In this document: positions 23,093 to 56,555 of the stretch, one piece after another | Position numbering within the stretch: position 1 is the stretch's first letter | How the letters are laid out: every line of letters starts with the position of its first letter | Source: Phycisphaerales bacterium | GTDB lineage: Bacteria > Planctomycetota > Phycisphaerae > WQYP01 | DNA: 64,000 nucleotides | NCBI GenBank assembly: GCA_009781185.1 | Contig: WQYP01000003.1 | Location: 7,219-71,218, forward strand | Direction of reading: 5' to 3' | Made by a program: the position numbers and the translations under genes | The notes under the pieces: model-generated | Databases searched by the model: none | Seen by the model: the letters and a program-made list of their open reading frames with translations, nothing else | What the model was told of the DNA's origin: nothing

Positions 23093-25117
23093 TTATTCAA
23101 GCGTTGGGGCGAAATGTTGCCAGAAAAGTTCAAGGGTGAGCAGGGCGAAGAGGCGGTGGGTGTGGTCGCGAAGAGCGGTGTGGTGTTCGTGGAGGAGGCG
23201 TTCGATGATTTGGGGTTGTAGATAGTTTCTCGTAAAGGATTGTTGCGAGAGGAGCAGATCGGTGAGCGGTGCGCGCAGGTCGCCCCCCCCCTGATTGTTA
23301 AACCATTGGCCGATGGGGACGCCGAAGCCTTTTTTGCGGCGGTGGAGGACGGCGGGTGGGAGATCGTTTGCGAAGAGTTGGCGGAGCGGGGCCTTTCCTT
23401 GGCCGTTGTGGATGAGAGCGGAATCGGGAAAGGAGTTGCCCAGTTCGACGATGCGGTGGTCGAGGAAGGGGGAGCGGACTTCGAGGGCGTCGCCGCTTGC
23501 TGAGCACATGGAGGCGGAGTCAACTTTCCAGAGAACGTCGCCGGGGAGATATTCGGATTGGTCGCGGAGCATGGCGAGGCGGAGCGGAGAAACATCATCC
23601 GGAAGACCGTACTCTTCGGGAAGCGGGAAGTAATCCAGCACCGGCTCGCCCATAAGTTCTTCGATAAATGGGCGTGGGAAAATGTCGACGAGGCGAGTGT
23701 ATTGTTCGGAGGGAATCTTGGATTTGGCGGCGGCGGCGAGGCGGCGGTAACGCTCTCTTTTGGAAAGAGAGCCCAAAGGGGAGGATTGGGGGAGAAATTT
23801 AACGAGGGGGCGGAAGCGGTTGAGGAGAATCATGGCGCGGTAGCGATCGTAGCCGGCGAAGAGTTCGTCGGCACCGTCGCCGGAGAGAGCGACGGGGGCC
23901 CTCCCCCCTACTTGGCGGGCGGCTCGGGAGAGGTGGTAGGTGGGGAGGATGGAGGAGTCGGCGAAGGGTTGGCCGAGGGATTTTTGCATGAGGAGACTGA
24001 GCGTGGCGAAAACGTCTTGCCTGGCGTGGACGGTGAGTTGGGTGTGGCGGGATTGGATTTTTTGTGCGACGGCCTGGGCGTATGGAGATTCGTCGAAGTC
24101 GGACTCTGTAAAGCCGACGGAGACGGTTTGGATGGGATCGCCGCCGGCTCTTTGGACGGCATCCTGGGCGAGCGTTGCGATGATGGAGGAATCGATGCCG
24201 CCGGAAAGGAAACAGGTGATGGGTGTATCGGCGATGAGTTGCGAGGAAACGGCAAGAGTGAGATTCTCGCGAAGATTTTCGATTTTCGATTTTCGATTTT
24301 CGATTTTTGATGTGGGTGTCCAGTAGCGGTCGCCGTCGAGAAGGTCATTTTGGAGGCGGAGCCAAGCGCCGGGGAGAAGTTGGTTCACGTCGCGGAAGAT
24401 GGTTTGCGGAGCGGGGAAGTAGCCAAGCAGAAGGTAGAGAGCGATTTGTTCTTTGGGGACGCGGCGGGGGACTTCGGGCCAGGCGAGGACGGAGGGGATG
24501 GTGGAGCCGAAGACAAGGCCGTCTTCGAGAATGGCGTAGAAGAGCGGTTTTTGGCCCATGCGATCGCGGGCGAGGAAAAGGGTGTGTTTCTGCCCTCCCC
24601 CTTGTGCCATCGGAGCCGCGACCGTAAGGGAGCGACCCCGCGGTAATGCGTCGGGAGAGCCGGTCGCTCCCTCACGGTCGCGGCTCTGATAGTCTGCGCT
24701 GCGTGTGTCCCAGATGGCGAAGGCGAACATGCCCAAGAGTTTGGTGGGGAGGTCGGTGCCCCACTGCTCCCAGCCGTGGACGAGGACTTCGGTGTCGGAA
24801 TGGTCGGATTTGAAGATATGTCCGTGGGATTGGAGTTCGCGGCGGAGTTGTGCGTGGTTGTAGATTTCGCCGTTGAAGACAACATGGACATTATTGGCTT
24901 CGTTAGCCATGGGTTGGTGGCCGCCGGAGCGGTCGATGATGGCGAGACGGGAATGGAGGAGTGCGGCGTGATTGTCGGCGAAGAGGCCGTGGCCGTCGGG
25001 ACCGCGATGAGCGATGGCTTGCGACATAGCCATGAGCGGTGCGAAACTGGAGGGGCGGGGGCCCCAGGGGGGCGGGCGGGAGGAGAGGTATTTGATGATG
25101 CCGGCGATGCCGCACAT
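23093..25117 (-). CDS. asnB: Asparagine synthase (glutamine-hydrolysing).
   Basis: N-terminal MCGIAGI Ntn-amidotransferase start; PP-loop FLSGGIDSS; 674 aa. Carries two in-frame foreign inserts: the palindromic element at 24608-24690 and the gattttc heptamer array at 24274-24309. Confidence 0.85.
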   Translation of the reverse strand: MCGIAGIIKYLSSRPPPWGPRPSSFAPLMAMSQAIAHRGPDGHGLFADNHAALLHSRLAIIDRSGGHQPMANEANNVHVVFNGEIYNHAQLRRELQSHGHIFKSDHSDTEVLVHGWEQWGTDLPTKLLGMFAFAIWDTRSADYQSRDREGATGSPDALPRGRSLTVAAPMAQGGGQKHTLFLARDRMGQKPLFYAILEDGLVFGSTIPSVLAWPEVPRRVPKEQIALYLLLGYFPAPQTIFRDVNQLLPGAWLRLQNDLLDGDRYWTPTSKIENRKSKIENLRENLTLAVSSQLIADTPITCFLSGGIDSSIIATLAQDAVQRAGGDPIQTVSVGFTESDFDESPYAQAVAQKIQSRHTQLTVHARQDVFATLSLLMQKSLGQPFADSSILPTYHLSRAARQVGGRAPVALSGDGADELFAGYDRYRAMILLNRFRPLVKFLPQSSPLGSLSKRERYRRLAAAAKSKIPSEQYTRLVDIFPRPFIEELMGEPVLDYFPLPEEYGLPDDVSPLRLAMLRDQSEYLPGDVLWKVDSASMCSASGDALEVRSPFLDHRIVELGNSFPDSALIHNGQGKAPLRQLFANDLPPAVLHRRKKGFGVPIGQWFNNQGGGDLRAPLTDLLLSQQSFTRNYLQPQIIERLLHEHHTALRDHTHRLFALLTLELFWQHFAPTLE
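24608..24690. repeat. Palindromic element (family 'cagagccgcgaccgtNagggagcgac') inserted in-frame in asnB.
   Basis: ggagccgcgaccgtaagggagcgacc…ggtcgctccctcacggtcgcggctct. Translated on the minus strand as …QSRDREGATG…GRSLTVAA…. Confidence 0.8.
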
Positions 25118-27559: not shown

Positions 27560-27890
27560 AGTACGGCGAAACGATCCAATTGACGAGTTGCCCACCCCTT
27601 TTTCCTCCCTCCGAAAAAAGCCCCGGGATTGCAATCCCGGGGCTTCGTTCAGAGTTGATCTTCTCGTTGGTTTGAACCGACGCGTCACGCAGCCTTCGCT
27701 TGTAATCAAAAAATCCCTGATACGACACCTTCTCCCGTTCACAGAATGCTTTGATGCTCAAACCGCTTGCCGCCTGCCTGCCAAAGAGTTCTTTCCAATG
27801 TGCACGTCGTTGGGATGGCGTCATTCGTGACGATTGTGCTATTGACGCTTGTGTCGCTGGCGAATCTTGCGCTAGGACCGATTGGGTCAT
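27513..27890 (-). pseudogene. IS-transposase N-terminal HTH fragment (IS3/IS66-type OrfA-like). Remnant: the 3' part is out of context and overlaps rnd.
   Basis: …TPSQRRAHWKELFGRQAASGLSIKAFCEREKVSYQGFFDYKRRL… resembles transposase OrfA HTH. There is no full transposase gene downstream. Confidence 0.35.
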
Positions 27891-28690: not shown

Positions 28691-29108
28691 AGTCGATTTT
28701 CGATTTTTGATTTTCAATTGTAGGGCAAAAATAAAAATGCCGCCACGGGGCTGCCGAGTGGGGCGCGACAGCTTGCGTACAGGCAAAGTGGGAACCCGTA
28801 CGGTGGCGGCGAGGATCGAAACCTCACAAGTCAAGCCAATAGACGCAAAACTTGTGAAAATAATTGACTTGTCACTGCTCGATCAATCCAATGACTTGAC
28901 GATGACCTTAAAAGCTACCCGCAGAAAATCGCTTCGTCAACCGTTTCTTGGTCAATTCTTAATCACTTCTTCAGGGGAATCGGTGAGGGCAATCATTGGA
29001 TGTCCGCCCCCGGCTCTGCCGAGGGCTCGCACGCCGGGAATGCTCCTTCCGCCATCACATCACCGGCATAACCCAATGGCACTCAATTGGGCGCGGTTCC
29101 GGTGAGCG

Positions 29109-31865
29109 TTATGACCGACGTCGCCGGGCGAGCAGGCCCACCGCCCCCAGCCCCAGCAGCGCCAGACTCGTCGGTTCCGGCACCAGCGCGAACTGACCGT
29201 TCTGGCTCAGCACCGCCCAGCTCCAACCCACTCCCTGACCGTCAATGTAATAGCCCCAACTGCCCACTGGCACGTCGCTCAAGCCGCCATTGTCGTTCAA
29301 GAATTCCTCGAGGCTCAAGTTCTCGTGGAATTCGCTGGGATCTCCGACGTACCCCCAGTTATCGAAGCTGACCATGTAGGGGAGTTCGCCTATCGCAAGA
29401 TTGATATCACCGAGATTGAAGGAGATTTCCAGGGCGTATTTGCCACCGAAAGCCTCGGCGGCACCGGTGACGTTGACAACGTCGGAGATCAGTGCCTTCT
29501 CGGTGGTGCTGAAGATGCCACTGGGATCGCCGATGTTGCCAGGGTAAACTTCGTCGGTCATGCGAGCTCGCCATTCCATGGTGACTTGCCCGTCATCGCT
29601 GGCGTTGCCGATGATGGTGGCCGTGGTGCCGACCATGGCAGCGCCTTGGTCGCTGCCGGTCGTTCCCGCAACGGTGGAGGAGAAGCTGTTCAATCCGGCT
29701 TTGACCGCCTTGACGTCCGGGGTGCCGAAGGTGTGACGATCATTGCTGTTATCGGCGAGGATCGGACCGCCGGGACCGCCGCCGCCGTTGACCTCGTAAG
29801 CGAAGAGGATTTGCCCATTCCCATTGTCTGTGATGCTGTAGTTTTTGAAGTCAATGCCGCTCCAGCTTGTGCCGCCAAGAACGATGGAGCCGGGGGTGCC
29901 GCCATAAGTCGTATCCACAAAGCCCGACACGTTGCTGTAGGTGAACAGCGTGAAAGAGCCTTCCGCTCCCGGCGCGAACGCGGAAGTGCCGCCCACCACG
30001 TTCAGGGAGACGGTACCGGGGAAGGCCAGCGTGCCGCCGACGACTGTAATGCTGCTGGGAGTTGCCGTGTTAAAGGCATAATCAAGAGTAGCGCCATCGC
30101 TGAGCGTCAACCCGCCAGCGCTGTTGAATGCCGCATTGTTCAGGGCGCTGAAAGTCAGCGTGCCCGCCGGAGCGAGGGTACCGTTGACGCTGAAGGGGGA
30201 GCCCGTCTGCCCATAGACCTTACCGGAGCCAGCGAGAGTCTGGCTGGAGGGAGTCGCAAAGTTGGCGATGCTGGAAACATCGAAGACCGCTCCACTGCTG
30301 ATGTCGATCTTCTCCGATTTTGCAATGGTATTGATGCCTGTGATCTTCAGTATGCCTTCCTGGATGACAGTCGCACCGGTGTAGGCGTTGGCAGAATGGC
30401 TAAGGGTCAGGGTACCGGTGCCGACTTTGATCAGTGACGCCGTGGTATCCAGCGTGATTGGCGTACCCGAATTAACGACAGTCGAACCGATGTTGGCGAT
30501 TCTTCCCGCGAAGCTGGAGTTGCCGGGTTGGCCGGGATTGCCGATGGTAAGCGTTTGCCCATCGCCGATTTCGATCAAATCACGAATATCGTTGCCGTAC
30601 CCGGATGTTGTCGGTGTTAGCTGATAGATGTGCCCGGAGCTTGGTTGTCCATCGCCATCTTTGAGCACGATATGACAGTTCGCCGTGAAAGTGGTTGGTC
30701 CAGTGCCAAGCCCTTCGCCGTAGAACTGGAGAACTAACCAAGGAGTAGAGCCATTATTGGTAGTCATCGTGACGCCGCCGGTGAAATTGGGATTATTTGC
30801 TCTTGTAATAACAAGCGACTTTCCCGCGGAGATTTTTCCGTCGCCGGTGATCTCGCCGGAGAAGGTGAAGCTTGCCGGTGCGGAGGAGGAGGCGTGCGAG
30901 AGAGTGAGGGTAGTTCCGCTGGCGATACTGACATCGCCAGACAATGTAACGTTTCCTATGGATGCCGCGTTGATCACCTTGTTGGTCCCGCCGCCCGCCA
31001 CGACAATCGGAGTGGTGAACGTGTAATCGGTGTTGCCACTACCACTTATGTAAATCCGAGCCTCACTGCTGTCCGCCCCCAGGTAAATGGCCGTCGCATT
31101 GGGGAGCCGCATGGTGGTGTTGCTGCCGTTTTCAAATGTGAGAATACCACTCATGACATGGATCGTCCCGGTGAAATCCGGGCTGGCCACACTATCAAAC
31201 CGCAAAGCGGTGTTGCTGTTTTGGGTGATATCGGCAACGTTGGCGCCGATGACACCTCTTACAGAGGTGCCAGCAGAGCCCGTCGTCGTCAGGCCGACAC
31301 CGTTACTGTTAATAGCACTGGCGGAGACAGCCGTGCCGGAGTTGGTGATGGTATTTGCCGGATCGTACGACGCGAAGTTAATGCCGCCGGAGAGAATGAG
31401 GGAATTGGCTGAATTGTTGGCGATCGTCAAAGCGGTGTCCTGGATGGAAATGGGAGCACTGATGATGTCGGCAAAGCTGCCCACGACATGGGTGATGTAA
31501 GTGCCACTGCCGCCGCCGTTAAGGGTTAAGTTATTCGCTGCACTGCCACCGAGCGTGAAGGCGGCAGTGGAGGACGAATCGATGATGAGCGTTTTCGCGA
31601 TGCCCGGGGAGCTGATGGTGGCGCCTGTCGTGAAAGTGACATCATCGCCGACGTCGGGGTAACTGAGGGTGGGTGACCCGCCGGTGAGAGCCCAGTTATT
31701 TGTGTCATTCCACGCGCCCGCGGCTCCCCCTTGCCAAGTGAAAGTTGCCGCCGAAGCCGCCTGCAGTGCCATTGCCGCGGCAATGGCGGCCACGCTTAGG
31801 ATGCCGTACTTTTTGAACGAGCGACTGCCGAAGGTTTTGTGACTGGCCATTTTGATGATCTCCAA
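29109..31865 (-). CDS. PEP-CTERM-anchored secreted protein with autotransporter-like beta-helix repeats (918 aa).
   Basis: Signal peptide; many …GTLTLS…/…GGTL… beta-strand repeats. C-terminus …ALVPEPTSLALLGLGAVGLLARRRRS is the canonical PEP-CTERM sorting signal (VPEP, TM helix, Arg cluster). Confidence 0.75.
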   Translation of the reverse strand: MEIIKMASHKTFGSRSFKKYGILSVAAIAAAMALQAASAATFTWQGGAAGAWNDTNNWALTGGSPTLSYPDVGDDVTFTTGATISSPGIAKTLIIDSSSTAAFTLGGSAANNLTLNGGGSGTYITHVVGSFADIISAPISIQDTALTIANNSANSLILSGGINFASYDPANTITNSGTAVSASAINSNGVGLTTTGSAGTSVRGVIGANVADITQNSNTALRFDSVASPDFTGTIHVMSGILTFENGSNTTMRLPNATAIYLGADSSEARIYISGSGNTDYTFTTPIVVAGGGTNKVINAASIGNVTLSGDVSIASGTTLTLSHASSSAPASFTFSGEITGDGKISAGKSLVITRANNPNFTGGVTMTTNNGSTPWLVLQFYGEGLGTGPTTFTANCHIVLKDGDGQPSSGHIYQLTPTTSGYGNDIRDLIEIGDGQTLTIGNPGQPGNSSFAGRIANIGSTVVNSGTPITLDTTASLIKVGTGTLTLSHSANAYTGATVIQEGILKITGINTIAKSEKIDISSGAVFDVSSIANFATPSSQTLAGSGKVYGQTGSPFSVNGTLAPAGTLTFSALNNAAFNSAGGLTLSDGATLDYAFNTATPSSITVVGGTLAFPGTVSLNVVGGTSAFAPGAEGSFTLFTYSNVSGFVDTTYGGTPGSIVLGGTSWSGIDFKNYSITDNGNGQILFAYEVNGGGGPGGPILADNSNDRHTFGTPDVKAVKAGLNSFSSTVAGTTGSDQGAAMVGTTATIIGNASDDGQVTMEWRARMTDEVYPGNIGDPSGIFSTTEKALISDVVNVTGAAEAFGGKYALEISFNLGDINLAIGELPYMVSFDNWGYVGDPSEFHENLSLEEFLNDNGGLSDVPVGSWGYYIDGQGVGWSWAVLSQNGQFALVPEPTSLALLGLGAVGLLARRRRS

Positions 31866-32380
31866 AGAGGACTCTCACTTCAATTCAGCTTCCCAAGCGG
31901 GAAGCAAAAACGCCAAAGGGAACGACAAGCCACCGAAAACTCGCTATTGTCAGCGAGATTTCGAACGTTGCTCTCGTTCCCTCTTTTGTCTTGAACGTCC
32001 CGAACTCAGTTCATGAGCTGTCCGGGCTGATGATGTAACATGGGCATCCTGCCCGCAAAACGCTCCCTGACGGTCGCGTTTCGGATTGGTTGCCGCGTCT
32101 CGAATTCGTGGGGAAAAATCAAATAATTAATGTTAAACTGGGGGGGGGGGGCAAGTTGGATAATTTGACCAAGGAAGTCTGACAATATTTTTCGCGATTC
32201 ATCGCGGCCGGAGAAAAACGCCGAGAAAATGTCGCAATTTTGCGTCATCATTGAGCTTACGCTCACCCTTGCCAACCAATACCCTCGCGCAACCGCCACA
32301 CGACAGCACGCGACATGTTCCCTATACCACAGATTTCGGGAAAAACAAGAATATTTTATTTTTTTTGCATCGTAAGCTCA

Positions 32381-34339
32381 TCAGCCACTGGACGCCCCCC
32401 CGGCAAAGCCAGGGACTGACGAGGGTGCAGGTGGTGGGATGCGTTGCCAGACGCGGGTGCGCCAGGTGTTGTAGACGTAGAAACGCCATTCGAAATAGAG
32501 GCGATAGGATTTTTCTTCGACGAGTTTCCAGTTGGGGCCGAGCTTCAGGCTGAGGGATTCGGTGGAAAGCGATTCGGTGGCGGGGGTGAGGTCGCCGCAT
32601 TTGTCGGTGATGATGATGGTGTGGATTTCGGGGGTGGTACGTGTGCGGCGGAGGAAGTCGTGGAGGCGGGCGATCTCGTACATGCCGTAGGCGAAGTTTT
32701 GTTCGGGGAGGAAATAGCTGCCGTCGGACATGGGGCGGACGTGGCGTGCGAGTGCGTAGGTGACGGGGATCACGACGCCGGGAATGGTGAGATTTAAGTG
32801 TGCAACTGCGAGGGTTTTGCGGTTTTTGGCGTCGAAATAGTCGGGTTTTGTCGCGATTTGGGCCGCGATGTGAAAGGGGGGATTGCGATAGACGAAATAG
32901 TTGGAGCAGGCGGAGGCCAGGGATGCGGCGATGACGAAACTGATGGCGAGGGTCCGGACGGGCCAGGTGGGCAGGCGTCGGAGCGAGGCGGCCAGCCAGA
33001 GGATCAGCGGAGCAATGATCGCTCCGACGTATCGCGGTTCCCAGAGCGGAGAGATTTTGTCGTAGCTCTGCCAGACGACTTTGTACCAGGTGGAATCTCT
33101 TGGGATCCAGGTGAGGGCGAGGGCGGCGGGCGGGAGAAGGATCCAGAGGGCCAGCCACCATGAGGGGGAGAAGGGGAGAGGTGGGGAGGGGGATAGGGAG
33201 CGCCGTCGGCCTCGCCAAGGGATCAGGCCGAGGATGAGAATGGCGGCGAAAATCAGGGCAACGTAAAACTCCGCGACAGCGAGCCAAGGCATCGAGCGAG
33301 TGGCGGCGTGCAGGTTGAAGTCGGAGTTGCCCAGGTTGAACCAGGTGCGGACCATCGGGTCGGGCGGGTAGCTGGGGTAGAGGTAACCTAACAGGTGGGA
33401 GCAGGGGAGCGAGGCGATGGTTTTCCATGTCATGTCGGTGTAGCTGAGGACCCAGGAGAGGGTCGTGTCGCCGCGACGTTCGATGAGGCGGTCCCACCAG
33501 TAGGTGCCGTTGAGGTACCAGTAGATCGGCAGGAGCGACATGATGCCGGCGGCGAGGGCGAAAAGGGGGCCGTCAAGGCAGCGCAGGCGCGGACGCGTGA
33601 GCAGGAAGATCAGTTGCAGAGCGATCATGAACCAGGCGGTGGAGTGCATGGCGGTCATGACGAAGCCGGTGAGGACGTAGAGCGGGAACCATAACAGGTG
33701 CTTGTGCGTGGTCTGCCATTTGAAAAAGAGGGCGGCGTTGAGGATGAGGAAGAGCCACATCGGGCCGTACATTTTGATGTCACGCGAATAGTAGATGAGG
33801 TACGGATTGACGGCAGTGAGCAGGGCGGCGAGGAGAGCACCCCTGCGATCGGTGAACTGGCGTGCGAGGAAGTAGACGGCAAGGACGGTGAGCGTTCCGA
33901 GAATGGCGGTGAGGGATCGGGTGGCAAGTGGCGTGAGAGCGGTATAAGCGGGATTTGCGGCACTGCCGAGAATCTTGGTCCACCAGTGATCGGGGCTCAC
34001 GAAGTATTCGATGAAGAGCGTCCACCAGCGAAGGAGAGCGTACCAGCCGGGGGGGAAACCCTGATTGGAGAGCGAAGCGAGCATCTGCTGGAAATTGCCC
34101 TGAACGCGATTGACGGTGTAGGACTCGTCGGTCCAGTAGCACTGATAGGAGATGCGAAAGAATCGCAGGAAGGCGGCCAAAAGTGTGATGGCGGTGAGAG
34201 TCAGGGTGAGCTGTTTACGAGAAGGAAACCGCGGCCATGCGTTGGATGTGTTAGCCCCCGGCTCTGCCGGGGGTTGACTGGCAATTGCGATTGCACCTGG
34301 CATATCAGGCACCGGCGATGTCTGCGAGGCGATGGTCAT
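32381..34339 (-). CDS. Membrane glycosyltransferase family 39/83 (PMT_2, ArnT-like, dolichyl-phosphate-mannose-type).
   Basis: ~12 TM helices. N-terminal region …YTVNRVQGN…PPGWYALLRWW…AILGTLTVLAVYFLARQF…AVNPYLIYYSRDIKMY fits ArnT/PMT_2. Carries the 26-nt palindrome in-frame near its N-terminus. Confidence 0.55.
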   Translation of the reverse strand: MTIASQTSPVPDMPGAIAIASQPPAEPGANTSNAWPRFPSRKQLTLTLTAITLLAAFLRFFRISYQCYWTDESYTVNRVQGNFQQMLASLSNQGFPPGWYALLRWWTLFIEYFVSPDHWWTKILGSAANPAYTALTPLATRSLTAILGTLTVLAVYFLARQFTDRRGALLAALLTAVNPYLIYYSRDIKMYGPMWLFLILNAALFFKWQTTHKHLLWFPLYVLTGFVMTAMHSTAWFMIALQLIFLLTRPRLRCLDGPLFALAAGIMSLLPIYWYLNGTYWWDRLIERRGDTTLSWVLSYTDMTWKTIASLPCSHLLGYLYPSYPPDPMVRTWFNLGNSDFNLHAATRSMPWLAVAEFYVALIFAAILILGLIPWRGRRRSLSPSPPLPFSPSWWLALWILLPPAALALTWIPRDSTWYKVVWQSYDKISPLWEPRYVGAIIAPLILWLAASLRRLPTWPVRTLAISFVIAASLASACSNYFVYRNPPFHIAAQIATKPDYFDAKNRKTLAVAHLNLTIPGVVIPVTYALARHVRPMSDGSYFLPEQNFAYGMYEIARLHDFLRRTRTTPEIHTIIITDKCGDLTPATESLSTESLSLKLGPNWKLVEEKSYRLYFEWRFYVYNTWRTRVWQRIPPPAPSSVPGFAGGASSG

Positions 34340-34527: not shown

Positions 34528-34556
34528 GAAAAACCCCCGGCAGAGCCGGGGGCTGA
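34528..34556 (-). terminator. Rho-independent terminator of rpsA (cccccggctctgccggggg + T5 on the minus strand).
   Basis: On the minus strand: cgtcagcccccggctctgccgggggttttt. It lies 28 nt after the rpsA stop codon. Confidence 0.65.
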
Positions 34557-34583
34557 CGATAGCTGCGATTGTTTTTTGGGGGG

Positions 34584-36320: not shown

Positions 36321-36731
36321 ATGCAGAGAAACCTTTCGTCTCACGCGGTCGGTCTTTTCCGCCTGTTACGGAACATCCGCAGCAAGCCGAAGTCACCCGC
36401 GCCGATCGCACGGCGGGCGCCCGCTGAGCGAGTGCCGATAGGCGCTCTGAAGACCCAGAGGGGAAACGAGTAAGTATAGCGGAGAGAGAGAGTTGGGGAA
36501 AGCGAGATGAAAAGAGCGGACTCGTAAAATTTGTAAAATGGGTGAAAGTCGTAAAATGCGTGGAGAGGGGGCGGAGCACCGCATGGTAATGCGGTGGTTG
36601 AATACCATGAGGCGGCCAAACCACCGCATTACCCTGCGGTACTCCCAAAGATGCAATCTTACGATACGGCTCTGATGATTTGCGGGACAATGCGTGGACG
36701 GCTATGGTTGCGTATATGAGGTGAATGGCTT

Positions 36732-37628: not shown

Positions 37629-38588
37629 ATGAATGAGACGCTTGCGAAGGTGCCGGTGCTGGTGACGGGGGGCGCCGGTTTTATTGGCGGGCATCTGGTG
37701 CAGGCGCTGGTGGAGGCGAGAGCAAGGGTGCGGGTGCTGGATGATTTTTCGGCGGGGGCGGAGGGGAATTTGCCGGCGAATGGAGTTGAGGTTTTGCGGG
37801 GGGATGTTCGGAAGGTGAGTGATTGCGCGAAAGCGGCGGCGGGGTGTACGGTGGTGTTTCATTTGGCGGCGTTGGGGTCGGTGCCACGGTCGATGGAAGA
37901 ACCGGAGCTTTACAATGAGGTGAATGTGGGGGGGACGCTCAATGTGCTGGAGGCGGCGCGGGCGGCGGGGGTGAGGCGGATGGTGTATTCGGCAAGTTCG
38001 TCGGCGTATGGCGATACGCAGGTGTTGCCGAAGGTCGAGACGATGACGCCGATGCCGATGAGTCCGTATGCGATTACGAAGTTGGCGGGGGAGTATTACT
38101 GCCGGGTGTTTGCAAAGGTGCATGGGGTGGAGACGGTATCATTACGATATTTCAATGTGTTCGGCCCTCGGCAGAATCCGCGGTCGCAGTATGCGGCGGT
38201 GGTTCCGGCGTTTATCAGTGCGCTGCTGGAAAAACGACCTCCGACCATTTACGGCGATGGCGAACAGACACGGGATTTTTGCTTCGTGGCAAATGTGGTC
38301 AAGGCGAATCTGTTGGCGGCGGCTGCGACAAGGAAGTTCAGTGGGGAGGTGGTGAATATTGCGTGCGGGGAGCGGATTAGTTTGAATGCGATGCTGGCGA
38401 AGATGCAGGAGATTCTCGGGACGCGGATCGCTCCTGTTTATTTGGTGGCGCGAGCCGGTGATGTGCGGGATTCGTTGGCGGATATCAGGGCGGCGGGCGA
38501 ACTATTGGGATATGAGCCGGAAGTGTTGTTTGAGGAAGGGTTGAAGCAAACCGTGGCGGCGTACGTATCCAAGGCAAACGAGCGTTGA
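37629..38588 (+). CDS. NAD-dependent epimerase/dehydratase (extended SDR; GalE/WbpP-like nucleotide-sugar epimerase).
   Basis: VLVTGGAGFIGGHL Rossmann motif; catalytic YxxxK (PYAITKLAGEYY). Confidence 0.7.
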   Translation: MNETLAKVPVLVTGGAGFIGGHLVQALVEARARVRVLDDFSAGAEGNLPANGVEVLRGDVRKVSDCAKAAAGCTVVFHLAALGSVPRSMEEPELYNEVNVGGTLNVLEAARAAGVRRMVYSASSSAYGDTQVLPKVETMTPMPMSPYAITKLAGEYYCRVFAKVHGVETVSLRYFNVFGPRQNPRSQYAAVVPAFISALLEKRPPTIYGDGEQTRDFCFVANVVKANLLAAAATRKFSGEVVNIACGERISLNAMLAKMQEILGTRIAPVYLVARAGDVRDSLADIRAAGELLGYEPEVLFEEGLKQTVAAYVSKANER

Positions 38589-38672
38589 TCTTCGATCAAC
38601 GGCTAAACTGTCACCTCAACCACCCCACAAAGGGGGGTCGCTGCCGCGGGTATTGAGCTTTACAATAGGGGA

Positions 38673-39881
38673 ATGGATAAGGATGTTGTGGTGACGAACT
38701 TGGATGTACGGCCGTATGTGGAGACGCTCTTTGCAAGGGCGTTGGCGGAGGAGGCGTCGGATATTCATGTGGAGCCGACGGCAGATGGGGCGGAAGTGCG
38801 GTTGCGGGTGGATGGGCTGCTTCAGACGATTGATCGGATGACGGGGGAAATGGGGCGGAGTACGGTGTTGCGGCTGATGGTACTGGCACAGTTGTTGACG
38901 TATCGATTGGACATTCCGCAGGAAGGGCGGGTGACGTGGGAGGTGGGGCATCGGAGCCGCGACCGTGAGGGAGCGACGGGTGCCGATTCTGAGTCGCACG
39001 GTCGCTCCCTGACGGTCGCGGCTCTGAACTTCCCTGAGGAAATGGGAGGGAAGCGGATTGATTGTCGGTTAGCGATTATGCCCACGGCGCATGGGCTGCG
39101 GGCGGTGGTGCGGATGCCGGCGGATTTGGTGCAGCCCAAGTCGCTGGGAAGTTTGGCGTTGCCGGCGGCGGTGATGGGGGCGTTGGAGCGGTTTGCGAAG
39201 CACGACCAGGGAATGCTGCTGGTGACCGGACCGGCGGGGTCGGGCAAGACGACGACGATTTATGCATTGCTGGAGCATATCGCGGCGGGAACGGGGGGGG
39301 AGGCGAGCGGGTTGTCGATTATCAGTTTGGAGGATCCGGTGGAGCGGCTGTTGCCGGGGGTGACGCAGATCGAAGTGACGCCGCATGGGCAGTTGACGTA
39401 TGAGCGGGCGCTCAAGTCGATCTTGCGGCAGGATCCGCAGGTGCTGATGCTCGGGGAGATTCGGGATGTGGCGACGGCGTCGATCGCGGTGCAGGCGGCG
39501 TTGTCGGGACATCGGTTGATTGCGACGCTGCACGCCGGTGAACCGGCGATGGCGCTGGCGCGGCTGCTGGAGATGGGTATTGAACCTTATCAGTTGACCA
39601 GTAGTTTGTTTGGGATTTTGAGTCAGCGGCTGTTACGGAAGCGATCGTCAGCCTCCGCAAGCCGTTATCGTGGGCGGGTGCCGGTGGCGGAGTTCGCACA
39701 GCTTGATACGGACGTACGTGCGGCGGTCTTGCAACGAGCAGATGCAGATTCTTTGAAAAATAGATTTGCCCAACAATCCGGCTATGTTACGATGCGAACT
39801 GTAGCAGAAGATTTGGTGGCACGCGGTGTGACGGACGAGGAGGAAGTGCAACGGGTTCTGGGTTTAGTACAGCGATCGTGA
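38673..39881 (+). CDS. GspE/PilB-like secretion ATPase (short form lacking the N1 domain).
   Basis: Walker A GPAGSGKTTT; Asp/His boxes; …EGRV…RIDCRLAIMPTAHGLRAVVRM. The palindromic element is inserted in-frame at 38950-39028. Confidence 0.7.
   Translation: MDKDVVVTNLDVRPYVETLFARALAEEASDIHVEPTADGAEVRLRVDGLLQTIDRMTGEMGRSTVLRLMVLAQLLTYRLDIPQEGRVTWEVGHRSRDREGATGADSESHGRSLTVAALNFPEEMGGKRIDCRLAIMPTAHGLRAVVRMPADLVQPKSLGSLALPAAVMGALERFAKHDQGMLLVTGPAGSGKTTTIYALLEHIAAGTGGEASGLSIISLEDPVERLLPGVTQIEVTPHGQLTYERALKSILRQDPQVLMLGEIRDVATASIAVQAALSGHRLIATLHAGEPAMALARLLEMGIEPYQLTSSLFGILSQRLLRKRSSASASRYRGRVPVAEFAQLDTDVRAAVLQRADADSLKNRFAQQSGYVTMRTVAEDLVARGVTDEEEVQRVLGLVQRS
38950..39028. repeat. Palindromic element of the same family, in-frame in the gspE-like gene.
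   Basis: ggagccgcgaccgtgagggagcgac gggtgccgattctgagtcgcac ggtcgctccctgacggtcgcggctct, encoding …HRSRDREGATG…GRSLTVAA…. Confidence 0.8.
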
Positions 39882-39905
39882 GGGATCGCCCAGCGGCATG
39901 CAAGC

Positions 39906-41174
39906 ATGCCGGCTAAATATACGCATGGCGAGAGGTTTATGGTGAGTACTGCAGATACAGAAAAACCTTCATCGCGTCTGTCACAGTTTGCATACGAAGC
40001 GCAGAGTCCGCAGGGGCTGACGTTGCGTGGGACGTTGGAGGCCGAGTCGCTTGCGGCGGCGACGAGCCAGTTGCAATCGCTCTGGCTGCGGGTGTTATCC
40101 ATTCAGCACGTTCCCGAGCAGGCAGCGCCCAGGCGTCTGGGCGTTGATGATTTTGTGTTGTTTAATCAGCAGTTGGCGCATCTGACGCAGGCGGGTCTGC
40201 CGGTGGAACGGGGACTGCGATTGATCGCGGCGGACCTGCGATCCGGCAAACTCGCGGCCGCGGCGAACGCGGTGGCCGCAGACCTGGAACGAGGCCTGTC
40301 GCTGCAGGAAGCGTTCCATCAGCATGCAAACCAGTTTCCCGATCTGTATGCACGATTAGTGGATGCGGGGGTGAAAACAGGCAATTTGCCCGGGATGCTC
40401 TTCGCCATGGGCCGGCACCTGGAGCTGGTGAAACGCGTACGCTTCGCGCTCTGGCGTGTGTTGACGTATCCGGTGATGGCGCTGGTGGCGCTTGCTGCGG
40501 TGATGCTGTTCGTTTCGATGACCGTTTTGCCGCAGTTACGGGATATTTACCGTGAGTTCGGCGGCGACGACGCAAGGCTGCCGCTCGTGACGGAATGGAT
40601 ACTGGCGTTCGGGCGTTATTATCCGATGATACTGCTGGTGCTGGGGTGCATGGTGGTGGTGATCGCCGCGGTACTGCTGTTATTGCGGTCGTCCGGGCGA
40701 TGGGGCTATTTCAGCGATTACGTGCTGCTGCCAATGCCGGTCATTGGCCCGGTGTTGAAAGCGAGTTTGTTGGCGCGTTGGTGCGATGGGCTGCGGATCG
40801 GGGTGGCATCGGGTCTGGACTTACCGCAGGCCATCGCGCTGACGTCCGATGCGATGGCGTCGCCGAAGTTGCAGCAGGATGCCAGGCGACTGACCACTGT
40901 GATTGCAACGGGGCAGAAATTCGATCAGTTCCGCAGCCATCTGCTGCCGGCGACCGTGCCTGCGGCCATCGAGCTCTCCGGCCAAAGCGGCGACCTTGCC
41001 TCGACCCTGGCAATCATCACGCAAATGTACGAGCAGCAGGCGGAGCAGCGATTGAAAATGATACCCGTGATCTTAACGCCGGTGATGATGGTGGTGGTGG
41101 TCTGCGGGATCGGGTTGACGATCACCGCGTTGTTTATGCCGCTGGTTAAGATAATTACCAGCTTGACGTTCTGA
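39906..41174 (+). CDS. GspF/PilC-like inner-membrane platform protein (two T2SSF domains).
   Basis: Two T2SSF-like repeats (…FNQQLAHLTQAGLPVERGLRLIA… and …LARWCDGLRIGVASGLDLPQAIA…); 3 TM. Confidence 0.65.
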   Translation: MPAKYTHGERFMVSTADTEKPSSRLSQFAYEAQSPQGLTLRGTLEAESLAAATSQLQSLWLRVLSIQHVPEQAAPRRLGVDDFVLFNQQLAHLTQAGLPVERGLRLIAADLRSGKLAAAANAVAADLERGLSLQEAFHQHANQFPDLYARLVDAGVKTGNLPGMLFAMGRHLELVKRVRFALWRVLTYPVMALVALAAVMLFVSMTVLPQLRDIYREFGGDDARLPLVTEWILAFGRYYPMILLVLGCMVVVIAAVLLLLRSSGRWGYFSDYVLLPMPVIGPVLKASLLARWCDGLRIGVASGLDLPQAIALTSDAMASPKLQQDARRLTTVIATGQKFDQFRSHLLPATVPAAIELSGQSGDLASTLAIITQMYEQQAEQRLKMIPVILTPVMMVVVVCGIGLTITALFMPLVKIITSLTF

Positions 41175-41185
41175 GGAGGATTGTT

Positions 41186-42634
41186 TTGGTCCAGGACAGC
41201 CAAACGCCTCTGGAATACCAGACGCCAGTGCGGGTTGTGGCGTCCGACTTGCCGCTTTGGCAGCAGGCGCTGATGCTGCTGTTCGTGTGGGCACCGCTGG
41301 GGCTTGTTTTCGTGGCGATCGTGGGGGTGGTGATGGGAATGTCGTGCAGTTATATGGTGGGGCAGGTCGGGATGCCGATCGGGGTGCTGTTCTGTGCTTA
41401 CGCGATTTACCGGATGCAGCGTGCGCGGCGACGACGGCGGGCCATGGCGATCTTGTCATACGTGGAAACAGCGACGCGTCTCAATTTGTCGTTGAATGAA
41501 TACCTGCTGGCGGCGGAATTGAGCGAGCGCGGTGCGACGCGGGAAAGGTTAAGCGACCTGCGGCGACGGTTCATGAGCGGGGCCTCAATCTCCACAGCGT
41601 TATACGAAGCGGTGCCGGAGATGCCCGCTTCGATCATCGCCACCGCACGCGTCGGCGAATCGCTCGGACAGGTACAACCCACATTGCGGCGACTGGTCAA
41701 CGAGGTCGCCAGACCCACCCTTCCGCCCAATGAACGCATGCCGTTTTACTGGTTTTACGGCATCGGCTTGTGCGTGGCGGTCTTTAACCTCGCCGCATGG
41801 CTCATGGTGTACATCATGCCAAAGTTCAAGGAGATCTTCCGCGACTTCAGCTCCCGCGGCACCGGCGTGACCCTTCCACCGGCGACGGCAAACTTGATCG
41901 TTTTTTACGATCGCATGGGGGACATGGGAGTGGTGTTCTTAGTGATCGAGGCCGTGGTATTCCTGGGACTTGTCGGATGGCTGCTGGAGCGGGCGTTCAC
42001 GTTGCGGCGTGAATCGCAACGGCGTTTGGCGCTGATCGACAAAATGCTCTGGAACTTGCCGGTGCTGGGACGGCTGAATCGGGCAAGATCGATGAGCGAC
42101 ATTTGCAACGTGCTGGCGGAAAGCACGCGTGCAGGCATACCGCTGCCGCAGGCGCTGGAGCGTGCCGAGGATCTGAACATCAACAACGAAGCGAAGCGTC
42201 AGGTGAAGTTGTGGCAACAGGGCGTGACGTCCGGTCAATCGCCGGCGAAAGCGGCACAGGCGGCGAAAATGCCGGAACTGCTCGTCGGACTCATCAATCC
42301 CGCACAATCACAAAGCGGGCATGACGATCAGAGCCGCGACCGTGAAGGAGCGACAGGTGCTATGGAGGAGACGCTCAAGCGTGAACTCCGGGGTCGCTCC
42401 CTGACGGTCGCGGCTCAGAACCTGCATGCCGTCACCAACGTGTTTGAATTCCTGGCACGCTATTACCGCGGACAGTTCTCGCGGCTGATGATCACGCTGC
42501 AAGCCGCAAGCGAGCCGCTCCTGGTCATCGCCCTGGGCATCATGGTGGCGTGGATGACCATGACGGTGATCTCGCCGGTCGCGGCGCTGGTGCAAGCGAT
42601 CATCAAGGTATACTGGGGAGGGGACGTCTTATGA
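41186..42634 (+). CDS. Second GspF/PilC-like platform protein paralog.
   Basis: T2SSF-like repeats. The palindromic element is inserted in-frame at 42328-42418. Confidence 0.55.
   Translation: MVQDSQTPLEYQTPVRVVASDLPLWQQALMLLFVWAPLGLVFVAIVGVVMGMSCSYMVGQVGMPIGVLFCAYAIYRMQRARRRRRAMAILSYVETATRLNLSLNEYLLAAELSERGATRERLSDLRRRFMSGASISTALYEAVPEMPASIIATARVGESLGQVQPTLRRLVNEVARPTLPPNERMPFYWFYGIGLCVAVFNLAAWLMVYIMPKFKEIFRDFSSRGTGVTLPPATANLIVFYDRMGDMGVVFLVIEAVVFLGLVGWLLERAFTLRRESQRRLALIDKMLWNLPVLGRLNRARSMSDICNVLAESTRAGIPLPQALERAEDLNINNEAKRQVKLWQQGVTSGQSPAKAAQAAKMPELLVGLINPAQSQSGHDDQSRDREGATGAMEETLKRELRGRSLTVAAQNLHAVTNVFEFLARYYRGQFSRLMITLQAASEPLLVIALGIMVAWMTMTVISPVAALVQAIIKVYWGGDVL
42328..42418. repeat. 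Palindromic element of the same family, in-frame in the second gspF-like gene.
   Basis: agagccgcgaccgtgaaggagcgac …35-nt loop… ggtcgctccctgacggtcgcggctca, encoding …QSRDREGATG…GRSLTVAA…. Confidence 0.8.
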
Positions 42635-43032
42635 CGATGCGAAATGAGAGACGAGCGGTGCGGCGGAGCCGCGGGTTTTTCGCCATGGAAGCGGCCTGGT
42701 CGCTGGGGCTGGCGCTGCTGCTGTTGATGATCATGACCGTGATGGTCATGCAGCAGAATAAGGCGGAAATGAAGTTATCACTGATTCGCAGCGCCTCACG
42801 GGCGACGGAAACGGCACTGCTGGAATTGAAGGCGGGCAAGCCTTTGCCTGCGGGCTTTCAACTCGAAAAACTGCCGGATAAGGCGCCGCAAGGCTATGCA
42901 TGGGTTCGCGTGACCGGGCAATCCAACGGCAACGAGCGAACGGAAAAAGTATACCGTGAACGATGCTCGCTGGTGGGACTGACACCTTCCGAGCCGCGAC
43001 CGTCAGGGAGCGACCCCGGAGGTGCGCGATGA
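42631..43032 (+). CDS. Small membrane protein in the pilus/secretion cluster; possible minor pseudopilin or assembly component.
   Basis: ATGA overlap with the upstream gene. RGFFAMEAAWSLGLALLLL hydrophobic N-terminus. Its C-terminal 30 nt are a half palindromic element. Confidence 0.35.
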   Translation: MTMRNERRAVRRSRGFFAMEAAWSLGLALLLLMIMTVMVMQQNKAEMKLSLIRSASRATETALLELKAGKPLPAGFQLEKLPDKAPQGYAWVRVTGQSNGNERTEKVYRERCSLVGLTPSEPRPSGSDPGGAR

Positions 43033-43514
43033 AAACGACCGCGAAATATCGCCAAGCACACGGCTACATTCTCACGGAAATGCTCATCGCGGTGGCGATT
43101 ATGGGAGTACTGGCAGTGCTGGTGGGCGATCTGTTCATGATCTCGTTCGGATCGATGCGGAAAGCGAGTTCGCGTGATAATCTTCTGTATCGCATGGACG
43201 CGGCAATCGGATCGCTGCGACGCGACACATGGGCGGCAGAAAAAATCAGCATGGACGCTGCAAACCACGTCGATCTGAAGATGCCGTCAGGGGAGCAGGT
43301 ATCGTGGCGGATGTCGGAGAAGGGCGTTCTCTCTCGCACGCTGCAGCGGAAAGGCGAGGCGGCACAGAATCAGACATGGCCGGAATTGCCGGAGATACGG
43401 TTTTTGCTTTCGTCGGACGGAGCGCTGCTGGAACTCAGCGTGCGTTCCGCCCCCGGCCAGGACGAATCGCTCACGCTGGTAAGTCAATCGATGCTGCAGG
43501 GGAGGAAGCGATGA
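43029..43514 (+). CDS. Type IV pilin/pseudopilin-like protein.
   Basis: Prepilin N-terminus …AHGYILTEMLIAVAIMGVLAV (G-Y/F-T-L-x-E motif). Confidence 0.6.
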   Translation: MKTTAKYRQAHGYILTEMLIAVAIMGVLAVLVGDLFMISFGSMRKASSRDNLLYRMDAAIGSLRRDTWAAEKISMDAANHVDLKMPSGEQVSWRMSEKGVLSRTLQRKGEAAQNQTWPELPEIRFLLSSDGALLELSVRSAPGQDESLTLVSQSMLQGRKR

Positions 43515-43951
43515 AGATCTGGTACCGCGACCGTCAGGGATCGCGTGGATTCACGCTGATTGCGGTGATTTTCATGTTCATCGTGATAGCCGCAGCGGTG
43601 GCGGCGATGACGGTCCTCTTCGCAACGGAAAATCGTCGGACGATCGGAACGCATTCAGGCACACAACTCCGGCAATTGCTCCTCGCCAGTGCGCCAGCAG
43701 CGGAAGAGGAACTGAAGTTGCACGGATCTGCCGCAAGAGAATGGACGCTTCCCACTCCCCTACCGGAAGCAAAGGTAACACTGACGTTCAAGCCCGTCAG
43801 CGAAGGAAAAGCAGACGTCCGCATCGACGTCAAAATGGGCAGATCGTCCGCATCGCAGACGCTTCGCTACATCCATAGCGGCCAGTCCTGGGCGCTGGAA
43901 TCCGCAACGTTGCACGCCGACGGCTCCCGCATCAGCACTTCGAACCCATGA
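43511..43951 (+). CDS. Pseudopilin-like protein.
   Basis: …SRGFTLIAVIFMFIVIAAAV prepilin-like N-terminus; 4-bp overlap with the upstream gene. Confidence 0.5.
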   Translation: MKIWYRDRQGSRGFTLIAVIFMFIVIAAAVAAMTVLFATENRRTIGTHSGTQLRQLLLASAPAAEEELKLHGSAAREWTLPTPLPEAKVTLTFKPVSEGKADVRIDVKMGRSSASQTLRYIHSGQSWALESATLHADGSRISTSNP

Positions 43952-43992: not shown

Positions 43993-44150
43993 CTGGGCAA
44001 GGGGTGTGATCATCTTTTGTGGCAAATGGCGAAAATGGTTGAAAATCAGAGCCGCGAGCGTAAGCTCGCGCAGTGGTGATCACAATCGCACGGCGCGAGC
44101 TTACGCTCGCGGCTCTGATTTGCCACAAAAGATGGCCACACCCTGGGCAA
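43993..44150. repeat. Large nested palindrome (~65-bp arms); MITE/REP-like intergenic element.
   Basis: ctgggcaagg…catcttttgtggcaaat…cagagccgcgagcgtaagctcgcg // cgcgagcttacgctcgcggctctgatttgccacaaaagatgg…cttgcccag. The core shares the cagagccgcga start with the CDS-inserted palindrome family. Confidence 0.7.
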
Positions 44151-47288: not shown

Positions 47289-47346
47289 CAAGGTGAATGG
47301 GTGAGGGGGTGACAAGATTCATTCGCGGTAAAGCGTGAACTCCGGG

Positions 47347-48108
47347 TTAATAGATCAGCGGCAGCCTCCTGGTTTTTTTCTCGTTGGCTTCGAGGATGGC
47401 GGGGGTAGGTGGGGTGAGTTCGATGGCGGTGATGTAGGTGATGTCTTTGAGCGTTTCGTCGAGTTTGCCGTGGTATTTTTTGTAGAGGGCGAGGGTGCGA
47501 CGTTTAGGGGGGGAGGCAGAGTCGGCAGTATAGATCGGGGCGACGACGGTACCTTCGATGGTTTGGTCGTTGAGGAGAGTGAATTGGTAGGCGAGTTCGA
47601 CGTTGGGATATTTTTTGCCGGAGTAGATTTTCTGGTCGGAGCCTTCCTTGAGCCAGCGCCAATCGTCTTCCATGGTTTGTGAGAGGACTTTCACGTCGAT
47701 GCGTTTGATCAGGGAGAGATCGATGTCGCGGTAGGTTTTGGTTTCCTCCAGCCAGACGCGGAAGGGGGTTTCGAGGGTGGTCCAGATTTGGCCTTCGACG
47801 GTGATGCCGTTGCTGAGTTTGACGGTGCCGGTGCGGGCTCCGGCGGGAGGCTTTTCGGTGAGGGTTCCGAGCGCGTCGGTTACGCCTTGGGTGGTGGGGG
47901 CGGTCGCTTCGGCAGGGGCTGTGGCAACGGGCGTGGTGGCGATATCGTTAACGTCGTCGTCGGCGAGGGTGAGTGAATTAGCCACAGACAGACACAGACA
48001 GACACGGACAAAATTCGAAATTCGAAATTCGAAATTCGAATTTTGTCCGTGTCTGTCTGTGGCTAATTTAGGTCGTCCGCAGGTTATAGTAGGGTGATTC
48101 TTGAGCAT
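47347..48108 (-). CDS. Hypothetical protein; start uncertain. The only in-frame ATG (48108) places a 90-bp palindrome inside the N-terminal coding region.
   Basis: High-GC3 coding signal from ~47975 down to 47347 with no ATG/GTG/TTG before the palindrome. ATG at 48108, or GTG at 47985 inside the palindrome, are the only candidates. The C-terminal 200 aa have no recognised domain. Confidence 0.35.
   Translation of the reverse strand: MLKNHPTITCGRPKLATDRHGQNSNFEFRISNFVRVCLCLSVANSLTLADDDVNDIATTPVATAPAEATAPTTQGVTDALGTLTEKPPAGARTGTVKLSNGITVEGQIWTTLETPFRVWLEETKTYRDIDLSLIKRIDVKVLSQTMEDDWRWLKEGSDQKIYSGKKYPNVELAYQFTLLNDQTIEGTVVAPIYTADSASPPKRRTLALYKKYHGKLDETLKDITYITAIELTPPTPAILEANEKKTRRLPLIY
47976..48068. 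repeat. Palindromic element: GACA/TGTC-rich arms flanking a gaaattc x4 heptamer array.
   Basis: attagccacagacagacacagacagacacggacaaa attcgaaattcgaaattcgaaattcgaa ttttgtccgtgtctgtctgtggctaat. Its right arm is identical over 24 nt to the element in the sufS-sufT spacer. Confidence 0.75.
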
Positions 48109-55829: not shown

Positions 55830-56327
55830 ATGCCCCTCGATATTCCCGATGGCACAACATGTTTCCTTGATTCCACGATCTTTTATTACGCTCTTGTTCC
55901 TACGTCGCCGTTTTCGACGCCTTGCCTCGAACTGCTCAATCGCATCATCGCGGGGCGAGTCTCTGCCGTCACCAGTGTTGCCGTGCTCAGCGACGCCATG
56001 CACAAAGTCATGATTTCCGAGGTCGCTTCGCTGACGGGCCGCGATCGCGCCGGCCTCATCGGCTATCTTGGCAAACATCCGGAAGTAATCGCCAGACTCA
56101 CACAATATCCGCTTGTTGCCGAGCGTCTCGAATCCGTGCCGATGACGATTCTTCCCGTCGATCAGCAACTTCTCGGCGACACGTCCCGCATCGCCGTCCA
56201 ACACACCTTGCTAACCAACGACGCGACGATCATCGCTCTGATGCAGCGTCACAATCTCACCCACCTCGTCACCAACGACGACGATTTCGACCAACTCCCC
56301 GGCATCTCCGTTTGGAAGCCGCGATAG
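55830..56327 (+). CDS. PIN-domain toxin (VapC-like).
   Basis: N-terminal …CFLDSTIFYY… and C-terminal …LTNDATIIALMQRHNLTHLVTNDDDFDQLPGISVW acidic residues diagnostic of PIN. Confidence 0.65.
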   Translation: MPLDIPDGTTCFLDSTIFYYALVPTSPFSTPCLELLNRIIAGRVSAVTSVAVLSDAMHKVMISEVASLTGRDRAGLIGYLGKHPEVIARLTQYPLVAERLESVPMTILPVDQQLLGDTSRIAVQHTLLTNDATIIALMQRHNLTHLVTNDDDFDQLPGISVWKPR

Positions 56328-56555
56328 TCAATCCGAGACGCGACCGTCAGGAAGCGTTTTTTCGAACCCGTGATCCGCGAAGCACGGGTCTGCGAATTAC
56401 GCAGACCCGTGGCACCCAAAAACTCTACCCCGGCCACCCGCCTGCGGTTGCCCAACCACATATCGTGGTCACAAACAGAACCATCAGAGCCGCGACCGTC
56501 AGAAAATTTGTCAGCTTCATGTGTTCATTTCCTAAAAGACGGGTGGCCAGAGTAT

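Follow-up and report, generated by a model that had tools for sequence, protein, structure and literature searches.

In-frame REP-like palindromes within a pilus operon and other coding genes of a Phycisphaerales bacterium

How does a gene for a pilus platform protein come to hold a 92-nt palindrome within a conserved domain and remain a single open reading frame (ORF)? The question is raised by a 64,000-nt stretch of a Phycisphaerales metagenome-assembled genome (MAG), here called the window (GenBank assembly GCA_009781185.1, contig WQYP01000003.1, forward-strand positions 7,219 to 71,218). Repetitive extragenic palindromes (REPs) are extragenic by name, and genomes in which most copies lie inside intact genes are rare, with Rickettsia as the textbook case. 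We identified in the window a doublet of REP units, resembling the hairpins known as REPINs (REP doublets forming hairpins), at 42328..42419 on the plus strand. It lies inside the second of two GspF-like genes (GspF2, a 482-amino-acid ORF at 41186-42634), where its predicted translation is QSRDREGATGAMEETLKRELRGRSLTVAAQ; an initial annotation of the same DNA had already placed a palindrome there, at 42328-42418. Comparison with relatives and with further contigs of the same genome revealed that protein-coding genes have acquired such doublets, as well as single units, and have not been destroyed by them.

The GspF2 hairpin is made of two inverted units of 26-27 nt. Its arms, 42328-42354 (TCAGAGCCGCGACCGTGAAGGAGCGAC) and 42393-42419 (GTCGCTCCCTGACGGTCGCGGCTCAGA), are 27 nt each, 89% complementary and 38 nt apart, and the RNA fold of the doublet is -58.9 kcal/mol (z = -6.3). 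The initial annotation gave this copy the longest loop, of 35 nt; the loop is indeed longer, and its exact value varies with the choice of the arm ends. What lengthens it is ACGCTCAAGCGTGAACTCCGG, at 42371..42391 (plus strand) within the loop, a unit that belongs to another family of palindromic repeats. Units of this type also occur at 47325-47345 of the window and, as a doublet, between the GspE and GspF1 orthologues of locus L123, the one locus returned by a metagenome scan with GspF2, which ends before the insertion site.

The doublet lies within the second T2SSF domain, as had been proposed. Specifically, the Pfam match to this domain stops at residue 371, position 69 of the 125 in the profile, and the alignment to PilC (3jc8) passes from query 376 and chain 357 directly to query 418 and chain 362. 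The protein has 37 extra amino acids, exactly HDDQSRDREGATGAMEETLKRELRGRSLTVAAQNLHAV, that are missing in the orthologue P0002 (58% identity) and in the orthologue from locus L125. At the nucleotide level, each of these relatives has 11 nt in place of window positions 42311-42432, where the blastn alignment breaks, which makes the net gain 111 nt.

GspF2 is the third gene of a six-gene operon on the plus strand (38673..43951), recognized by Pfam and by N-terminal motifs. It is preceded by a GspE-like T2SSE ATPase (38673-39881) and GspF-like T2SSF platform protein 1 (GspF1, 39906-41174), both, like GspF2 itself, assigned by Pfam. It is followed by a small ORF with a pseudopilin-like N-terminus (42631-43032), a pilin with the N_methyl (N-terminal methylation) motif recognized by Pfam (43029-43514) and a pseudopilin identified by its pseudopilin-like N-terminus (43511-43951). 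A second doublet lies at 38951..39027 (plus strand) inside the GspE-like gene, with predicted translation RSRDREGATGADSESHGRSLTVAAL and an RNA fold of -66.1 kcal/mol (z = -8.8). The corresponding residues, approximately 93-124, are missing in all 26 of the 26 orthologues compared (60-82% identity). They are also missing from PilF (5oiu), which aligns with query residues 13-92 over chain positions 9-88 and with query residues 125-323 over chain positions 88-280. In an AlphaFold model of the protein (mean predicted local distance difference test score, pLDDT, 84), strands 83-90 and 128-138 are joined by the insert, which is predicted as coil with pLDDT values of 50-62.

Single units occupy the ends of two further genes of the operon. 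One unit, ttccgagccgcgaccgtcagggagcgaccc, at 42987..43016 (core 42994-43012, plus strand), is a clean 30-nt in-frame insertion at the 3' end of the small ORF relative to loci L124 and L125. It is predicted to give the ten C-terminal residues SEPRPSGSDP, so that the protein ends ...SLVGLTPSEPRPSGSDPGGAR where the orthologues end ...SLVGLIPGGAP and ...SLIGLIRGAQ. Immediately downstream of the unit comes the pilin gene's Shine-Dalgarno sequence, GGAGGTG, and the ATGA stop/start overlap is kept. The initial annotation described a half element at 42991-43016 supplying the C-terminal codons just before the pilin start; both the codons and the pilin ATG at 43029 were confirmed, with the correction that the 24-mer it quoted spans 42991-43014 and encodes ...EPRPSGSD.... 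A variant unit, GTACCGCGACCGTCAGGGATCGCG, at 43521..43545 (core 43525-43543, plus strand), falls in the leader peptide of the pseudopilin. It encodes residues 5-12 (YRDRQGSR), as previously suggested, over 43521-43544. The further claim that the element contributes start- or stop-proximal codons to three consecutive genes holds for the codons, with the correction that the genes are three out of four in a row, since the intervening pilin gene has no copy.

The leader of the pseudopilin is hypervariable: the stretch between MK and (S/E)RG(F/M)TLI is entirely different in three genomes. Where the window has a REP unit, the leader in L124 contains a perfect palindrome, ccagggattgcaatccctgg (683-702), from a family that is also present at 27609-27654 of the window, with the form CC(A/C)GGGATTGCAATCCC(T/G)GG. 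The presence of different palindromes at one position suggests that the leader is a recurrent landing site. A degenerate unit, GTACAGCGATCGTGAGGGATCGC, lies at 39866..39890 (plus strand) at the end of the GspE-like gene, and the TGA stop codon of that gene falls in its GTNA loop. With four mismatches to the core, it is only a possible member of the family; neither this unit nor the foreign unit in the GspF2 loop had been noted in the initial annotation.

Homologous genes that encode the same proteins and lack the palindrome, which the initial annotation had named as a finding against its proposal, were not seen in L122, L124 or L125. Instead, the protein segments themselves are missing (37 amino acids in GspF2 and 10 at the C-terminus of the small ORF), and the pseudopilin leader is wholly different. 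We detected no unit in the orthologous L125 operon (6.25 kb), even allowing four mismatches.

We searched the whole window for the 19-nt core CCGCGACCGTCAGGGAGCG with up to three mismatches and found ten matches, where shuffled sequence gives an expectation of 0.05. Full hairpin doublets number three (24609-24690, 38951-39027 and 42328-42419). All three are inside long ORFs, in frame and free of stop codons, and all three are missing from orthologues or solved homologues. The third host gene is unrelated to pili: the doublet at 24609..24690 (minus strand), with predicted translation QSRDREGATGSPDALPRGRSLTVAAP, lies in an asparagine-synthase-like (AsnB-like) gene on the minus strand (23093-25117). 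Residues 140-179 of the AsnB-like protein form an insertion relative to 7ylz and 1ct9 that replaces three residues of 7ylz, and the RNA fold of this doublet is -66.9 kcal/mol (z = -8.7).

The unit is approximately 26 nt long and consists of a CnGA foot followed by an imperfect hairpin, CCGCGACC-GTNA-GGGAGCGG, with an 8-bp stem, a tandem G/A mismatch and a 4-nt loop. Doublets join two inverted units with arms of 27-29 nt and a spacer of 23-38 nt. Units of the window read TC(A/G/C)GAGCCGCGACCGTnA(G/A)GGAGCGAC; the unit conserved across genomes is tCnGAGCCGCGACCGTnAGGGAGCGGt, with the n of GTnA as the variable position. REP-like sequences have been reported to flank the genes of class 3 HuH-Y1 proteins, rare enzymes found principally in Planctomycetes, Acidobacteria and Proteobacteria; Table S1 of that study lists CCGAGCCGCGACCGTAAGGGAGCGGA from L. 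pneumophila and CAGAGCCGCGACCGTCAGGGAGCGATCG from S. usitatus, and the latter genome holds approximately 600 copies (Quentin et al. 2018, BMC Genomics 19:475, PMC6006769). The window units match these entries nearly base for base, with the same structure: the DNA fold of the unit is a small hairpin, CCGC-GA-CC / GTNA / GG-GA-GCGG, with a dot-bracket string identical to those of the Table S1 entries.

We scanned 185,579 species genomes for an 18-nt core and recovered it in at least 119 genome stretches, mostly from Planctomycetota and Acidobacteriota. Among the matches listed there are also Proteobacteria, including the isolate Legionella shakespearei, and a few MAGs of other phyla. Thus, the host, a member of the Phycisphaerales according to the NCBI names of the window proteins, and the main part of the listed matches belong to the three phyla named for class 3. 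The copies are also dispersed, with the ten core matches in 64 kb of the window and 13 more in other contigs of this genome, which total approximately 55 kb. Judged by sequence, predicted structure, host phyla and dispersed multi-copy state, the element is the known REP family of class 3 HuH-Y1 REPtrons. There are differences in detail. Window units end in GCGAC and the published ones in GCGGA or GCGT, and the window element is found mostly as doublets and mostly inside genes, whereas class 3 REPs were described flanking the enzyme gene, with no report of in-frame insertion into host genes (PMC6006769).

Two other assignments were considered and set aside. The element does not belong to the GTAG/CGTC-tagged REP super-families (Di Nocera et al. 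2013, PMC3733652), as its foot is CnGA and the CGTC inside CCGTCAGG falls at the variable loop position. Also, no Rfam RNA family matches anywhere in the window at the gathering score, and permissive thresholds give generic hairpin noise. In some Acidobacteriota, Planctomycetota and Myxococcales MAGs (L021, L029, L030, L108 and L112), we observed tandem arrays of the unit's own 5' half, for example repeated ccgagccgcgaccgtaagcta, ahead of the unit, or 60-nt tandem arrays; this is a mode of amplification unlike the hairpin doublets.

The doublets share the organization of REPINs, with inverted units separated by a short spacer. The spacers of different doublets have a common sequence, ...ATTC...TTGCCGCACGG, which suggests that the doublet spreads as a unit in a REPIN-like manner. 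REPIN/RAYT (REP-associated tyrosine transposase) systems, reportedly described by Bertels and Rainey in 2011, similarly comprise two inverted REP units that spread together as a hairpin, along with single units, and are presumed to depend on a HuH tyrosine enzyme acting in trans. However, REPINs are overwhelmingly extragenic, while all three doublets of the window and the copies in three further genes of this genome (SelB, CitMHS and M56, below) are intragenic; and the enzyme would be of class 3 rather than class 2, to which the RAYTs belong.

We looked beyond the window in two ways. A protein profile built from the three inserted peptides was searched against 1.84 billion representative proteins and gave 42 hits. 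The seven NCBI-named hits that match in a single stretch (P0129, P0130, P0134, P0140, P0144, P0145 and P0146) all come from this same MAG, with FWD61_* locus tags, and the six best single-stretch hits are all among them. In P0144, a CitMHS_2 transporter, the insert falls within the domain, and in P0130, an M56/BlaR1-like protein, it falls past the peptidase domain. The CRISPR-like hits P0132 and P0142 were rejected as unrelated repeat translations. Further contigs of the genome (L126-L129, approximately 55 kb) contain a doublet in SelB, found without profile selection, between residues that align to positions 161 and 171 of E. coli SelB, and another at a gene edge. Together, approximately 119 kb of the MAG contain at least six doublets in mid-protein positions of recognizable genes (GspE, GspF2, AsnB-like, SelB, CitMHS and M56/BlaR1-like); when the four doublets ascertained by protein search are left out, four of five are mid-protein in recognizable genes. 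In other genomes, doublets lie mostly outside long ORFs, and the ten best long-ORF candidates, checked by eye, proved to lie at the ends of genes or ahead of their starts, or else in spurious ORFs of high GC.

The lengths of the inserts are compatible with the host frames. With (A)TCnGA...TCnGA as the boundaries for every copy, the lengths of the eight doublets in this genome are 78, 81, 81, 81, 81, 90, 93 and 78 nt, each a multiple of three, whereas 32 doublets from other genomes fall 7, 16 and 9 into the three residue classes. The GspE and GspF2 copies are read as SRDRxGAT...RSLTVAA, which is the sole frame on the coding strand without stops, the others being closed by GTGA and CTGA motifs. 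We therefore do not take the shared frame as evidence of selection on the peptide, since no other frame is stop-free in two of the three copies; the shared frame is a filter. The positions are ones at which proteins tolerate additions: a beta-hairpin turn (GspE), the region between helices of the second T2SSF domain (GspF2), a loop of the glutaminase domain (AsnB-like), inter-domain linkers, a C-terminus (small ORF) and a cleaved leader (pseudopilin). No consistent target-site duplication is present in the eight doublets compared. This fits single-strand transposition of the HuH type and speaks against a miniature inverted-repeat transposable element (MITE) of the DDE type. GCATGMCG and TGGGAGG near two copies had appeared to be such duplications and were discarded when the eight copies were compared.

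Is there an enzyme that could move these sequences? The profile search also returned P0157. This protein carries the motifs NHVH and Y....Q, and its Y1_Tnp match is borderline, at 22.9 bits where the cut-off is 23. On L130, an independent 943-nt contig, the class 3 gene of P0157 is flanked on both sides by these REP units. This contig also has a REP doublet within the class 3 HuH-Y1 gene itself (595-668), between the HuH and Y motifs and apparently in frame. All-versus-all BLAST clustering of the 119 loci revealed no partner gene and no RAYT recurrently beside the element, and no neighbouring transposase gene was seen at the Legionella loci inspected. The lack of a recurrent partner, like the negative search for a class 3 gene described below, is the pattern expected for a dispersed repeat whose enzyme is encoded by a single-copy gene. 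Mobilization is probably by a class 3 HuH-Y1 enzyme.

Given these observations, we propose that the inserts are selfish REPIN-like elements of the class 3 family that entered coding genes in frame and were filtered by selection, a planctomycete parallel to the elements of Rickettsia; we put the probability of this explanation at roughly 0.8. The gene for a class 3 HuH-Y1 enzyme would lie at another place in the genome, and the enzyme would act in trans on single-stranded DNA to produce the copies, leaving no target-site duplication. Selection would purge insertions that cause a frameshift, a stop or damage to the fold, so that the survivors look tailored to coding sequence. The inserts, with predicted peptides such as SRDREGATGAMEETLK and EPRPSGSDPGGAR, would be translated as extra loops or tails. 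They would represent neutral or slightly deleterious passengers, not functional parts of the pilus machinery.

Several points weigh against this proposal. Orthologue identity of only 58-82% prevents the doublet insertions from being delimited to the nucleotide, and each doublet insertion is 15-30 nt longer than the palindrome. We found no polymorphism between empty and filled sites within the species: locus L001 is 100% identical to the window, and L001 and L002 are the same strain, so that recent mobility is not demonstrated. Translation of the inserts is predicted solely from the statistics of frames and stops. Four of the additional doublets were obtained through a protein profile, which is biased toward in-frame copies in ORFs. 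Finally, a scan for HuH and Y motifs and a tblastn search with P0157 detected no class 3 HuH-Y1 gene in the window, the 119 other REP-bearing loci or L126, with L127-L129 outside the search, and for this reason the link between enzyme and element in the host organism draws on the literature and on L130.

Alternatively, the family may be a REPIN subfamily specialized for, or preferentially kept in, coding sequence, and so a counterpart outside Rickettsia of the Rickettsia palindromic elements. The lengths in multiples of three, the one stop-free frame on both strands and the hydrophilic, flexible predicted peptide would then be properties of the element itself. We hold this only tentatively and consider it unlikely. 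If it were true, the element would keep supplying proteins with new loops, tails and leader peptides, and might also supply mRNA hairpins within genes that adjust the expression of operons.

An adaptive or regulatory role is less likely again. The hairpins and the units at gene junctions might tune the operon through ribosome pausing, RNase processing, mRNA stability or translational coupling, or the peptides might add some property of their own. Effects of REPs on mRNA stability and translation are known (PMC3733652). Four of the seven window elements, plus one degenerate and one variant copy, lie within the 5.3-kb pilus operon, the intragenic hairpins are very stable (-59 to -67 kcal/mol), and one unit is directly 5' of the pilin Shine-Dalgarno sequence. 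However, the same doublet is found in the unrelated AsnB-like, SelB, CitMHS and M56 genes, relatives have the same operon without any copy, and we saw no conservation of position across species. Moreover, the fold around the pilin start is no better than those of shuffles (z = -0.35).

A classical MITE, derived from an insertion sequence and moved by a DDE transposase that recognizes the 27-nt terminal inverted repeats, would account for the long inverted termini and variable centre of the doublet and for the short direct repeats GCATG and TGGGAGG near some copies. These repeats differ in length and in distance from the ends, though, and five of the eight copies have none. Single 26-nt units insert alone, and each unit agrees with the class 3 REP and has the hairpin plus foot that HuH substrates typically have, which makes a MITE origin very improbable. 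It is also hardly credible that the inserts escape translation, through ribosome bypass or removal from the mRNA. Phage T4 gene 60 and the 'byp' elements of yeast mitochondria are precedents for bypass, and the hairpins are very stable and lie within genes of essential type. Yet bypass or excision requires neither a length in multiples of three nor the absence of stops, and all eight doublets have both in the host frame; the single-unit insert is exactly 30 nt. We noticed no pairs of take-off and landing codons, though no search was aimed at such pairs. Chance similarity or an assembly artefact, suggested by nothing beyond the metagenomic source, is virtually negligible given the excess of core matches over the expectation from shuffles, an independent ENA assembly that is identical over 12.5 kb, and the presence of the same proteins in NCBI, JGI, ENA and Logan records.

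In-frame intragenic REPs are in themselves already known, from Rickettsia and from several species whose ORFs contain REPs (Di Nocera et al. 2013, PMC3733652), and the phenomenon is rare. The Rickettsia palindromic elements (Ogata et al. 2000, as summarized in PMC3733652) are a close parallel to the selfish, selection-filtered inserts proposed here. The two are alike as a phenomenon, in that palindromes lie in frame within functional genes and add peptide segments at the surface, and they differ in host, an obligate intracellular alphaproteobacterium versus a planctomycete. The likeness is one of behaviour only. To our knowledge, there is no link between the Rickettsia elements and class 3 HuH-Y1 enzymes. 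We found no published report of in-frame intragenic copies for the class 3 REP family or for planctomycetes, and a full-text literature search for the element sequence returned no paper. The MAG offers a second, phylogenetically remote system in which to study the colonization of coding sequence by palindromes, the tolerance of proteins to 25-37 extra residues and the role of the barely studied class 3 HuH-Y1 enzymes. In practical terms, such inserts inflate protein lengths, break domain matches (T2SSF here) and create spurious "hypothetical proteins" in the annotation of MAGs.

Two further single units of the window are intergenic. One, at 32061..32079 (minus strand), lies between ORFs 29109-31865 and 32381-34339, near a run of 12 G at 32140-32151 that is also intergenic. 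The other, at 56338..56356 (plus strand), begins approximately 7 nt past the stop of ORF 55830-56327 and has a T run after it. It is the only one with such a run; intrinsic termination was rejected for the intragenic doublets, which are in mid-ORF and have no T run. A truncated unit, CAGAGCCGCGACCGTCAG, is found at 56484..56505 (plus strand) and is followed by unrelated sequence. Between the pilus operon and coaE there is an intergenic doublet of a related REP variant, CAGAGCCGCGAGC-GTAA-GCTCGCG, at 44038..44126 (plus strand), with a perfect 7-bp stem and a fold of -71 kcal/mol. It is nested in an outer inverted repeat at 44002-44143 (26-nt arms, 92% complementary) and thus forms a compound palindrome.

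The window contains at least six different palindromic repeat families. A 33-nt stretch with the palindrome GTTGATC-TTC-GATCAAC occurs at 38580-38612 of the window and at 1388-1420 of L125, at different loci; the two copies are 97% identical, in contrast to approximately 65-70% DNA identity for the genes of these two genomes. In the window it provides the TGA stop of an epimerase gene, and in L125 that of the GspE gene. A short repeat is present at 2668-2695, 28993-29029, 34249-34275 and 34532-34557 and also at 2011-2047 of L123, where it has the form of a hairpin, CCCCGGC-AGA-GCCGGGG, between the GspF1 and GspF2 orthologues. Two large inverted repeats, 18395-18508 and 36573-36645, share the motif GGAGCACC(G/A)C(A/G)TGG(T/C)AA(T/C)GCGGTGGT and represent a further palindromic family; the first also contains tandem copies of GACAAGGT. 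Nested or compound palindromes at 20844-21007 and 47976-48068, with arms of 31 nt and 37 nt, are unrelated in sequence. Lastly, the GC skew, positive over 1-56 kb, changes sign at approximately 56000 and is about -0.16 to -0.38 from 56 kb on. The change coincides with a switch in gene orientation and may mark a replication landmark or simply the change of coding strand.

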